From Candidatus Omnitrophota bacterium (GTDB taxonomy: Bacteria > Omnitrophota > Gorgyraeia > Gygaellales > Profunditerraquicolaceae), in the NCBI GenBank assembly GCA_026387355.1, contig JAPLLW010000015.1:27569-91568 (forward strand): 64,000 nucleotides of DNA, read 5' to 3'. This document shows, piece by piece, positions 51,001 to 54,000 of the stretch. The first letter of the stretch is position 1, and every line of letters starts with the position of its first letter. The position numbers are program-made.

Positions 51001-54000
51001 ATATTTATTATCGAAGAGGAGCTGGTTAAGGAACAGGTATACAGTCAGAATTCGCGTAAGCCGGTGCGTTTCATAGACAGGAGATAGAGTTGTCTAAATG
51101 TAAAACAGTTGTTCCGAGGTTCGAATTCAGCAAAGAAGAGATAGCAGAAGCGGTAAAGCTTAACCGCCTTCTTTCTATGGAGATTGAATTTTCTCTGCGC
51201 TGCAACTTTCATTGTCAATATTGCTATGTTCCGGATAAGGCGGCTTTTGATAATGAGCTCACCTTTGATGAGCTGCGTGACGGGATACTCCAGGCTAAAG
51301 AATTGGGGGCTAAGAAGATTATTATTTTAGGCGGAGAGCCAATGGTCTATCCGCATATTTTAAGGATGCTCAGATTTATCCGCGAAGAGAATTTGTATGT
51401 TGAGATGTTTACGAACGGTTTTGGGATTACCGTAGATTTAGCTAAGCAGTTATTTGATTTGGGGGTAAACGTAGTTTTGAAGATGAATAGCCGAAAAGAG
51501 AATGTTCAGGATGCCCTTGCCGGTAAAAAAGGGGCGTACAAAGTTATTCAGGAGGCATTTAATAATTTAAAGCATGCGGGTTATCCTGGTAAGGACCGCT
51601 GTTTAGGGGTAGGTACGGTTATCTGTCAGCAAAATTTCGATGAAATAATTGATATGTGGGAGTGGTTACGTCAGCAGAAGATCGAGCCTTATTTTGAGAT
51701 TATGACTCCTCAGGGTAAAGCGCGCGAAAATGAATGGTTAGGGGTGGAGTTATTAAAGCTTAAAGAAATGTTTTTCAAGATCGCTGAGATTGACCGCAAA
51801 AAATATGGTATTCAATGGGACCCACAGCCACCCCTAATGGGGATTGAGTGTTTAAGGCACCAATTCTCTTGCCTGCTTAATGCGCAAGGCTTTATTTTGC
51901 CTTGCGTGGGGGTAAATATTCCATTGGGGAATATTCGCGAACGCAAGCTAAAAGATATTATCCAGGAGAGCGGAGTTATTGAAGACCTGAGGGATTACCG
52001 GGCAAAAATAAAAGGGCCATGCCGGGAGTGCAAGAAGGCAGAGACTTGTTATGGGTGCAGGGGCGCAGCATATCAGTTAACCGGAGATTACCTCGCTTCT
52101 GATCCTCTTTGTTGGAATAATATCGAGCGTCAGAATGATATTGTACATCTTCCGGTTTCCGTGGATAAACTTATACCGCAAAAGTCTCCAATGCGGGTTA
52201 TAGATACATTAATCAGCGTAGCTGAGCGTACCGCCGATGTCAAAGTCACACTTTCTAATGATATGTTATTTGTGCGCGATGATGGTTCGCTTGATGAGGC
52301 AACTTTTCTAGAGTTAATTGCTCAGGGCTCTGCCGCCTTATCCGGATTTCGCAAGGTAGGCATAACCGATCAAGCTGTGGAGGGATTCCTGCTCGGAGTT
52401 AAGAGACTGGAGATATTTGGCAGCGCGCATATAGGGGATACTTTAACTATTTCCGTTTCTAACTATGCGCGTTTCGGAGATTTTTCAATAATTAAAGGCA
52501 AGGTTTATCGAGGTTCTGATCTACTTGCCCAGGGAGAAATAAAAGTCTGGGAGAATACCGGAGTTAAGTTATGAAGCGTTTTCTAATCTTTATTTTTACA
52601 GTTATCTGTTTAAGTTGGTATGCAGCTTATGCCGATAATTCCAATAGAGATATAAATTCTACTCTTGATAATCTTGAGAAAAAGATGTCGGGGATTGAAA
52701 GTATTCAAACGGATTTCGTCCAAGAGAAGGATCTTGCGCTTTTTAATGAGAAACTAATTTTGAAAGGCAAGGTATTTATTAAAAAGCCCATGCTTTTATC
52801 CTGGAGGGTATTTACCCCTATGCGTTATTCTATAGTTATCAGGGGTAGTACAATTAGCCAGTGGGATGAAGATACGAATAAAGTTCAGCAGGTATCTATG
52901 GCCAGCAATCCTTCATTTCAGGCAGCAATTGCCCAGATGCAAAACTGGTTTTCCGGGGCATATAAATCCATGCAGAGTGATTACGAGATTACTTTGATCA
53001 AGGATAATCCGCTCGCCCTTGTTTTTATACCGAAAGCAGGCTCACTCCCGCAGAATTTTATCAAACGCGTAGAAATTGTTTTTCAAGATGATCTGCGTTA
53101 CCTTAAAGAGATAAGCATTTCAGAGAAAAACGGGGATCATACGCGCCTTAAGTTTATGAATACAGAAATTAACCAGCCGATAGATGCAAAAACATGGGAA
53201 GCTAAGTCAAGTGTTCGCTAATCAACTATCCCGCATATATAATTTAGTCCAGGTCCGTAAACCCTGGGTTATTGTACTACTGGGTTTAGTTATTTTGTCA
53301 TCCATCGCCGGTCTTAAATTTATTAAGTATAATAATGATATCGCAGTAATGTTGCCGTCAGATAAAAATGTGCAGCGCAGTTTGCGGTTTTTGCGCGAAG
53401 CTAATTTCTCGGACAAGTTGGTCGTCTCCCTGAAACTAAATGAAGATAAACGCACCACAGAAGAGTTGATTTTAGCTACCGATCAATTCACTCAGAGCAT
53501 AAATTCACCACTAATAAAGCAGGTCTTTGGCAATATCTCGGGAAAAAACGTTATGAGCGAGATGGTTACTTTTTTAAAGTATACCCCGCAGCTATTGGGT
53601 ATTGAGCCGTTAATGAAATTAGAATATGGTACTCGCCCCGATGAAATTAAAGAGCGGCTTAAATTTATCTTTAAACAGTCCTTAAGCCCGTCTAGTTCTT
53701 TTATGATGCCTTTTTTGCGCATAGATCCGCTTAATTTATCATCCGGAATCTTACACAACATGGAAAAGCTCTCCGCAGCTTCAGGTTACCAAGTTTTGAT
53801 TAATAGCGGGCATTTTTTAAGTAGGGATGGCCGGCACGCTATGGTTATAGTGAAATCATCTGTGGTTTTGACTGATGGATTTGGCTCCCGGAAGATAGTG
53901 GACTATTTAAAGAATAAGATCAAAGAACTGCCCGGCTATGTTAAGGCAGATATTATCGCCGGCCACCTGCATACAATAAGCAATGAAGATGTTATAAAAA

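Follow-up and report, generated by a model that had tools for sequence, protein, structure and literature searches.

We analysed a stretch of 64,000 nucleotides (the window, to which all coordinates refer) from a Candidatus Omnitrophota bacterium (GenBank assembly GCA_026387355.1, contig JAPLLW010000015.1). The gene at positions 51090–52574 of the + strand encodes a radical S-adenosylmethionine (SAM)/SPASM enzyme that carries an ApeP-like hotdog domain at its C terminus. This hotdog domain is, with high probability, the Glu-donating half of the only dehydratase of its operon, and its sequence pairs it with a free ApeI-like protein as the His-donating half. We suggest that the two proteins form a split ApeI:ApeP dehydratase, as in aryl polyene (APE) synthases, and that the radical SAM domain acts on an intermediate tethered to the acyl carrier protein (ACP). 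We consider this explanation, taken as a whole, to be probable. Neither the families of the two domains nor the operon type are new, while the fusion and its reading as part of a split dehydratase are undescribed in the literature that we searched. As the initial annotation had supposed, no characterised enzyme with a radical SAM/SPASM–ApeP architecture was found there. Literature searches on PF22817, ApeP-like, and TIGR04072 returned nothing, and those on radical SAM with hotdog, ACP, SPASM, and polyene returned nothing relevant. The sources name the fusion protein simply 'radical SAM protein', and no curated family model covers the fusion.

The open reading frame (ORF) encodes 494 amino acids and begins with TTG, with an AGGAGA Shine–Dalgarno sequence 8 nt 5′ of the start; the coordinates given in the initial annotation are exact. 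The gap from the preceding ApeH/FlxY-like gene is 2 nt, and the stop overlaps the next gene by 4 nt. The AlphaFold2 (AF2) model of the full-length protein has a predicted local distance difference test (pLDDT) score of 90.8 and a predicted template modelling (pTM) score of 0.89, and the confidence is steady across the interdomain junction, with pLDDT >90. The linker between the domains, residues 342–353 (52113–52148, + strand; WNNIERQNDIVH), is short and conserved. A scan of one genome per GTDB species gave 470 stretches that encode a relative, from Omnitrophota, Nitrospirota, Desulfobacterota, and the PVC (Planctomycetes–Verrucomicrobia–Chlamydiae) phyla. The comparisons of loci below concern the best 80 of these 470, and residue conservation is counted over 81 species-level sequences; W342, N344, and I351 of the linker are present in 81/81. 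The best 80 loci align over residues 1 to about 490 in a single frame. We also listed the best 120 matches each to the window protein and to a Geobacter-like member, L080, and all of these have about 490–510 amino acids and the same set of domains, namely, Radical_SAM, SPASM, and ApeP-like. The number of proteins within the E-value thresholds exceeds 2,000. Thus, the fusion, which had been described at the outset as unusual, is uncharacterised but not rare, and the product of the ORF is a real bifunctional protein that has been conserved.

The radical SAM core occupies residues 32–192 (51183–51665, + strand) and has the form of a partial (β/α)6 barrel. It matches Pfam Radical_SAM (PF04055) with E = 1.5e-23 and 84.2 bits, against a gathering cut-off of 29.5, and strands and helices alternate in the AF2 model over residues 29–239. 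Foldseek comparison with solved radical SAM enzymes gives E values of 1e-15 to 1e-10, with SkfB, SuiB, PqqE, anSME, and CteB as the nearest to the N-terminal part. The CxxxCxxC motif is CNFHCQYC at residues 38–45 (51201–51224, + strand), and C38, C42, and C45 are predicted to coordinate the SAM-binding [4Fe-4S] cluster; they occur in 80/81 sequences, the lone exception being a gap in a truncated sequence. The GGEP motif, residues 81–84, is invariant (81/81). The SPASM domain follows at residues 254–341 (51849–52112, + strand); it matches PF13186 with E = 1e-6 and 29.3 bits (cut-off 21.5) and aligns to the SPASM region of PqqE. Its eight Cys residues, 254, 261, 272, 311, 314, 320, 323, and 341, are each conserved in 81/81 sequences. 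They are spaced as C254-x12-G267-x4-C272, C311-x2-C314-x5-C320-x2-C323, and C341, with C261 as an extra invariant residue. This is the seven-Cys reference motif, CX9-15GX4C ... CX2CX5CX3C ... C, except that the last spacing is x2 here instead of the canonical x3. The number of Cys residues would suffice for two auxiliary [4Fe-4S] clusters, so that the enzyme is predicted to hold three clusters overall. All of the motifs of the N-terminal part named in the initial annotation are thus present, the SPASM Cys residues running as far as C341.

The N-terminal part shares with the known SPASM enzymes (PqqE, SkfB, SuiB, CteB, and anSME, as well as NirJ and AhbD) the CxxxCxxC and GGEP motifs, the partial TIM barrel, and, in the C-terminal SPASM region, the full set of Cys residues for two auxiliary clusters. 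In contrast to these enzymes, it reaches no curated-family cut-off. The best NCBIfam matches, NirJ2, AhbD, PqqE, and NirJ1, score 99–118 bits, whereas the cut-offs of the five best-scoring families are 381–650 (NirJ2, 118 bits vs. 500; AhbD, 116 vs. 500; PqqE, 110 vs. 381). Membership in the NirJ, AhbD, or PqqE equivalogs was therefore rejected, and the N-terminal part, although a SPASM radical SAM enzyme, falls outside the curated families. It differs from the SPASM enzymes further in carrying a hotdog domain, in sitting in a lipid/polyketide operon, and in having two extra conserved Cys residues. Cys4 (51099–51101), in the disordered N-terminal tail, is conserved in 79/81 sequences, and Cys179 (51624–51626), which follows the barrel strand 172–178, in 81/81; both are outside the cluster motifs. 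Since Cys179 is at the end of a barrel strand, it probably faces the active site. It is possible that Cys4 and Cys179 serve as hydrogen-atom donors or extra cluster ligands.

The C-terminal domain, residues 354–488 (52149–52553, + strand), has the hotdog fold that was proposed from its sequence signature. Both parts of this signature are present, PMRVID at residues 367–372 and EATFLELIAQ at residues 403–412. Residues 373–488 of the AF2 model form two strands, a long helix, and four strands, which is the hotdog pattern. The closest solved hotdog by Foldseek is ApeP (6qsr_B; E = 1.6e-11, template modelling score 0.80). A phmmer search of the isolated domain against the PDB sequences gave a lone significant match, 6QSR chain B, with E = 1.7e-5 over residues 10–142 of the 148-residue query. 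The title of this entry is 'The Dehydratase Heterocomplex ApeI:P from Xenorhabdus doucetiae'. Stand-alone ApeP-like proteins match at 1e-15 to 1e-33. The precomputed PF22817.3 ApeP-like match for the identical protein bears no weak mark, which means E ≤ 1e-5, and the same match is given for all of the homologues listed.

The active site of FabZ lies at a dimer interface, where one subunit provides the His of the GHFP motif and the other provides the Glu. A self-sufficient FabZ or FabA has this His and an acidic residue in one polypeptide, which gives its homodimer two complete sites; the fusion does not have both residues. Glu408 (52311–52313, + strand), in the motif LELIAQ, is equivalent to the catalytic Glu of FabZ and is invariant together with Q412 (81/81), as is the G432-L434-G436 motif. 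At position 400, where X. doucetiae ApeP has an aligned His, the fusion has T, K, I, F, L, V, or S, and His occurs in 0/81 sequences. No conserved His is found anywhere in the hotdog domain of the 81 sequences. The assignment of this domain in the initial annotation to the ApeP-type dehydratases of APE clusters therefore stands as to type, but the domain is not a complete dehydratase.

The complementary residue is found in a free ApeI-like hotdog protein of 125 amino acids (56268–56645, + strand), which is encoded 3.7 kb downstream of the fusion in the same operon. It matches Pfam ApeI-like with 31.7 bits (cut-off 28.5) and, by phmmer, 6qsr_A with E = 1.1e-5. Its sequence, GHFPGKPILPGVCKIQ, keeps the His of the GHFPGKP motif, making it the predicted His-donating partner, and has Gln at the position of the FabZ Glu. 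Among 52 co-clustered ApeI-like orthologues, His39 (GHF) is found in 52/52, while position 53 is Gln in 47/52 and Glu in 0/52. When the 64-kb window and the 80 loci were searched with a hidden Markov model (HMM) of the ApeP-like domain, each yielded a single copy, which is that of the fusion. The ApeI-like HMM matches the window and 51/80 loci, and never more than once per locus.

ApeI and ApeP form a heterodimeric dehydratase with a single active site (PMC8041823). The system in the window resembles the ApeI:ApeP systems of X. doucetiae (6QSR) and Acinetobacter baumannii in having an ApeI-like partner in the operon and in dividing the catalytic residues between the halves. It differs in that ApeP is not free-standing but is joined to the C terminus of a radical SAM/SPASM enzyme, and in that this fused ApeP lacks, in every sequence, a His at the position of the X. 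doucetiae ApeP His. Fusions of such halves have a precedent. In A. baumannii, ApeI is fused to the ACP-loading enzyme ApeH (PMC8041823), whereas the ApeI of the window is free. Chain A of 6QSR was deposited as 'AMP-dependent synthetase and ligase', which is consistent with an ApeH–ApeI fusion, so fusion of dehydratase halves to ACP-dependent enzymes is a repeated occurrence. Single-chain ApeP–ApeI proteins of about 290 amino acids also occur, and in other cases, a genuine stand-alone ApeP-like gene directly precedes an ApeI-like gene.

The fusion is embedded in a conserved, colinear 17-gene operon that spans at least positions 45292–63885 (+ strand), as judged by domain annotations and by synteny in the 80 loci. 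The genes lie on a single strand, and all of the gaps between them are ≤53 nt. The first part of the operon encodes a FabG-like ketoreductase (KR), a CrtI/phytoene-desaturase-like flavoenzyme, a ketosynthase (KS1), the ACP, a lysophospholipid-type acyltransferase, the ApeH/FlxY-like ligase, and the fusion. After the fusion come LolA-like, MMPL/RND-like, DUF3261, and ApeI-like proteins, a 4HBT thioesterase, and a second ketosynthase (KS2), and these are followed by two lipoproteins, a conserved hypothetical protein, two B12-binding radical SAM proteins, and a GT2/DUF2062 protein. The window proteins were searched with tblastn against the 80 loci, and gene order and strand match in nearly all of them, in several phyla. 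Counted over the loci with enough flank, the genes are present as follows: FabG-like in 52/54, CrtI-like in 55/57, ACP in 62/65, ApeH-like in 71/74, LolA-like in 72/76, MMPL-like in 70/75, DUF3261 in 59/61, ApeI-like in 50/58, KS2 in 44/50, and the first and second B12-binding radical SAM genes in 38/45 and 37/43. The fusion thus sits among KS, ACP, KR, and thioesterase genes; co-occurrence with ketosynthase and ACP genes was a check that the initial annotation had suggested. The AddAB-like genes upstream, at 38781–44836, show no such synteny, which places the start of the cluster at 45292.

The operon contains the gene set of APE clusters, namely, KS, ACP, KR, an ApeI/ApeP dehydratase, an ApeH loader, a thioesterase, an acyltransferase, a glycosyltransferase, and LolA/MMPL/DUF3261 export. 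Its members are like ApeD, E, H, I, J, K, L, M, N, O, Q, and R, and the set may be compared with the Escherichia coli ape table (PMC8253772). An ApeB-like methyltransferase, in contrast to APE clusters, was not found among the annotated genes of the operon. The operon is, then, an APE-type type II polyketide synthase/fatty acid synthase to which four redox/radical enzymes have been added: the SPASM fusion, the CrtI-like flavoenzyme, and the two B12-binding radical SAM enzymes, of which the CrtI-like and B12 enzymes also set it apart from APE operons. These extra enzymes suggest that the product is modified.

The proposed mechanism for the fusion is as follows. The N-terminal 341 residues are a SPASM-type radical SAM enzyme, predicted to hold one SAM-binding cluster and two auxiliary [4Fe-4S] clusters, and the short, rigid linker would fix its active site beside the dehydratase. 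The hotdog domain and the free ApeI-like protein would form a heterodimeric, single-site 3-hydroxyacyl-ACP dehydratase, as in APE synthases. The ACP-tethered enoyl or polyenoyl product of this site would then pass directly to the radical SAM domain, where the 5′-deoxyadenosyl radical would abstract a hydrogen and the auxiliary clusters would remove an electron. The net outcome would be an oxidative tailoring of the chain, such as a C–C cross-link or cyclisation, a desaturation, or a decarboxylation. In SPASM enzymes, the auxiliary clusters typically carry off an electron in a process coupled to hydrogen abstraction, and for this reason, the step is probably a net oxidation. That the radical SAM substrate is ACP-tethered is plausible, and slightly favoured in our judgement, on three grounds: ACP-dependent enzymes are recurrent fusion partners of dehydratase halves, the interdomain linker is invariant and short, and the model is that of a rigid body.

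Several observations weigh against this explanation. The local Pfam model PF22817.2 gives the isolated C-terminal domain only E = 0.066 and 13.2 bits (cut-off 27), and a local Pfam scan of the whole fusion protein gave no hotdog match at E ≤ 1. The ApeI-like gene was undetected in 8/58 loci with enough flank. The nearest solved or curated relatives of the N-terminal part (PqqE, SkfB, SuiB, NirJ, and AhbD) act on peptides or tetrapyrroles. From the ApeH–ApeI precedent, fusion to a dehydratase half can mean a shared complex and not use of the dehydratase product. In addition, a related cluster (L088:3-2135) encodes an aromatic amino-acid ammonia-lyase, a starter-supply enzyme, in the slot of the radical SAM domain of the window, followed by a stand-alone ApeP-like protein and then LolA and MMPL; the radical SAM domain could likewise serve starter or head-group chemistry.

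The last two points lead to the alternative that the fusion is only a scaffold, which holds the radical SAM enzyme in the synthase complex or equalises the amounts of the two activities. The substrate would then not be ACP-tethered but would be a free small molecule, in the anoxic making or modifying of a starter or head group, or the finished, released lipid. The similarity of the neighbouring ligase to the flexirubin ligase FlxY, its closest NCBIfam match (459 bits vs. a cut-off of 520), agrees with this alternative, as do the gene order of L088 and the joining of enzymes of other steps to dehydratase halves in ApeH–ApeI fusions. However, ApeH itself acts on ACP, so the precedent still favours ACP-dependent partners; a short, invariant linker and predicted rigid packing (pTM 0.89) exceed what co-expression needs; and L088 is a single locus and thus thin evidence. 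We regard the scaffold alternative as possible but rather improbable. If it were correct, the gain would be a modest one in annotation, with 'radical SAM/SPASM–ApeP dehydratase subunit' replacing 'radical SAM protein'. The hotdog domain might instead be catalytically inert and recognise the acyl-ACP or the acyl chain, much as leader-peptide recognition domains do for peptide-modifying SPASM enzymes. The lack of the canonical catalytic His from all 81 sequences would be explained in this way, but the invariance of Glu408, Q412, and G432-L434-G436 fits a catalytic half-site, and single-chain ApeP–ApeI fusions exist. Furthermore, since the ApeI-like protein, the only other FabZ-like protein of the operon, has no Glu, an inert hotdog would leave the operon without a complete dehydratase. 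An inert domain is therefore unlikely.

A function of the radical SAM/SPASM domain as a peptide or protein maturase, acting on the precursor of a ribosomally synthesised and post-translationally modified peptide, on ACP, or on another synthase subunit, would accord with its best structure and sequence matches, the peptide-modifying SkfB, SuiB, PqqE, CteB, and anSME. The fusion differs from the peptide-modifying SPASM enzymes in having no leader-peptide recognition (RRE) domain, as none was detected in the Pfam scan of the protein. The operon also has no precursor-peptide gene, and its gaps of ≤53 nt leave no room for one, while the conserved neighbours are all lipid/polyketide enzymes or exporters. 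A maturase is thus very improbable. The possibility that a frameshift, a mis-assembly, or a gene-calling read-through joins two genes, which the initial annotation had raised, is ruled out by the comparative data. Odd longer forms such as P0153 (720 amino acids, described below) may be read-throughs, and P0129, rejected as a stand-alone ApeP-like domain, is a gene fragment at the end of a contig. However, both sets of 120 listed homologues show the single-chain architecture, 80 independent species-level assemblies match in one frame, and the junction, with its invariant residues, is modelled with high confidence.

Returning to the split dehydratase with an ACP-tethered radical SAM substrate, the reaction itself can be narrowed only loosely. 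The initial annotation had taken the fusion to mark a candidate cyclisation or C–C-forming step. Given the ApeH–ApeI fusion (PMC8041823), it argues for one ACP-centred complex and not specifically for these reactions, and C–C bond formation in particular is improbable, although conceivable. In its most specific form, the fusion would be an ACP-dependent radical cyclase or cross-linker within the elongation cycle, closing a C–C bond after each 2-enoyl- or polyenoyl-ACP is made; we think that this is doubtful. If it were true, such a cyclase, together with the CrtI-like and B12 enzymes, would lead to an undescribed class of carbocyclic or cross-linked polyene lipids in bacteria of the Omnitrophota, Nitrospirota, Desulfobacterota, and PVC groups, and it would put into practice the stepwise 'type c' scheme that has been proposed for the making of ladderanes. 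An analogy is offered by Jaw5/C10P, radical SAM cyclopropanases that were proposed to modify a growing, carrier-bound unsaturated ketoacyl chain together with a polyketide synthase, and which are one of just two such cases named in a 2026 review (PMC13459092). The analogy is one of function only, and these enzymes are not fused to a dehydratase half. Jaw5 is a HemN-like, and not a SPASM, enzyme.

The operon belongs to a type of orphan 'ladderane-like' cluster that has been known since 2009 and has no known product. In Kuenenia stuttgartiensis, the genes kuste3335–3352 were reported to have 'striking' synteny with Desulfotalea psychrophila and Geobacter, and to include SAM radical enzymes, a phenylacetyl-CoA ligase, a phytoene dehydrogenase, a glycosyltransferase, and a new membrane protein (Rattray 2009, PMC2649909). 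The window operon has in common with such clusters FabF paralogues, ACP, FabG, a phenylacetyl-CoA-ligase-like enzyme, a phytoene-desaturase-like enzyme, radical SAM enzymes, a glycosyltransferase, and a membrane protein, and its second B12-binding radical SAM enzyme is a full member of TIGR04072 (rSAM_ladder_B12). When Kuenenia genes were expressed in E. coli, no new product was obtained, and two radical SAM proteins were undetected (Javidpour 2016, PMC4790861). D. psychrophila made polyunsaturated hydrocarbons and no ladderanes, and because of this, the window operon type is not expected to make ladderanes. Biosynthetic gene clusters called 'ladderane' by antiSMASH have been reported in Omnitrophota, Desulfobacterota, Verrucomicrobiota, Planctomycetota, and others, with function unknown (PMC9902471). 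The radical SAM–hotdog fusion is unmentioned in PMC2649909, PMC4790861, and PMC9902471, and for kuste3342/3343 and DP1853/1855, just the 2009 and 2016 papers were found, which give no domain detail. The composition of the operon differs from that of anammox Cluster I, kuste3603–3608, which is now held to be central to ladderane synthesis and whose anammox-specific hallmarks are amxACP, amxFabZ, and the pair amxFabF2/amxFabFmut. What Cluster I and the window operon have in common is just the B12 radical SAM family TIGR04072 and a phytoene-desaturase-like gene. The closest genomes, from Omnitrophota, Nitrospirota, and Desulfobacterota, are not known ladderane producers, and we have not filed the operon as an anammox Cluster I.

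The 80 loci are labelled as about 27 Nitrospirota/Thermodesulfovibrionia, about 23 Omnitrophota, about 9 Desulfobacterota-type, and 5 Planctomycetes, and the rest are a few Verrucomicrobiota, Lentisphaerae, Ratteibacteria, and unclassified metagenome-assembled genomes (MAGs). The nearest relatives of the window protein are from Omnitrophota and are 74% identical. The matches listed in the homologue search with L080 came from uncultured MAGs only, and all were named 'radical SAM protein'. One locus, L027 (CAZSRD010000011.1), is labelled 'uncultured Methanosarcinales archaeon' and holds a complete operon of bacterial type, with LolA, MMPL, and DUF3261 included; mis-binning of a bacterial contig is the probable explanation. 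Two longer variants were also seen, P0153, with the order radical SAM–SPASM–ApeP–LolA, and P0162 (717 amino acids), with an acyltransferase at one end and SPASM–ApeP at the other. Since a cytoplasmic Fe–S enzyme joined to a periplasmic carrier would be topologically odd, P0153 may be a read-through across the 4-nt overlap.

Of the other genes of the operon, the ACP (48786–49043, + strand; Pfam PP-binding, E = 8.8e-12) is the presumed substrate carrier, and the ApeH/FlxY-like enzyme (49792–51087, + strand; Pfam AMP-binding) is an adenylating enzyme that would load the starter. KS1 (47553–48785) and KS2 (57134–58264) keep the active-site Cys, in the motifs SAACAS and SCACAS, as well as the His residues, and there is thus no clear case for taking either of them as an inactive chain-length factor. 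The N-terminal third of KS2 is divergent. Its third-best NCBIfam match, and the top one to a specialised family, is to the cispentacin protein AmcF (221 bits vs. a cut-off of 325). A conserved hypothetical protein of 194 amino acids (59504–60088, + strand), present in 39/46 loci, has no Pfam or NCBIfam match. Its sole resemblance, to FabF over the N-terminal half of the latter, is insignificant (E = 0.91), and the protein might be a degenerate subunit like a chain-length factor. The first B12-binding radical SAM gene (60085–61344, + strand) is divergent from TIGR04072 (42 bits) and has a weak radical SAM motif. The product of the second (61323–62714, + strand) scores 630.8 bits against TIGR04072, which has a cut-off of 360 and is described in NCBIfam as 'lipid biosynthesis B12-binding/radical SAM protein'. 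Two small genes (58219–59525, + strand) whose products have predicted signal peptides lie after KS2 and before the conserved hypothetical gene; they encode a DUF4410 protein and a 222-amino-acid protein with an LTGC lipobox-like signal. These two lipoprotein genes are present in just 4 of about 46 loci and are a recent insertion specific to the close relatives of the window.

Elsewhere in the window, positions 388–18528 hold a second, unrelated locus that is rich in radical SAM paralogues. The radical SAM genes at 388, 10162, and 14334 are of the B12-binding kind, and the one at 11617 is of the zinc-ribbon HMPTM type; genes for an asparagine synthase (1753) and a DegT aminotransferase (17272) adjoin them. 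This locus looks like a glycan or small-molecule modification cluster. In the window as a whole, all of the long ORFs except one are on the + strand, the GC skew is positive throughout, the cumulative skew rises monotonically, and the GC content is about 32–43%. The strand bias and the skew fit one replichore of a low-GC genome.

Radical SAM enzymes that act on fatty-acyl or polyketide chains bound to a carrier protein are almost unknown. Here, a type II synthase has a dehydratase with a covalently attached SPASM enzyme, which is predicted to have three clusters, and the fusion is kept in one operon type across hundreds of anaerobic species of several phyla, which suggests that radical chemistry takes place on a lipid assembly line. 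This operon type has been flagged as 'ladderane-like' since 2009, and it recurs in genome-mining surveys, still without an assigned product. The reading of the fusion as half of a split active site offers a minimal system, consisting of the fusion, the ApeI-like protein, and ACP, which could reveal the product of these orphan clusters and how radical chemistry is coupled to chain elongation.

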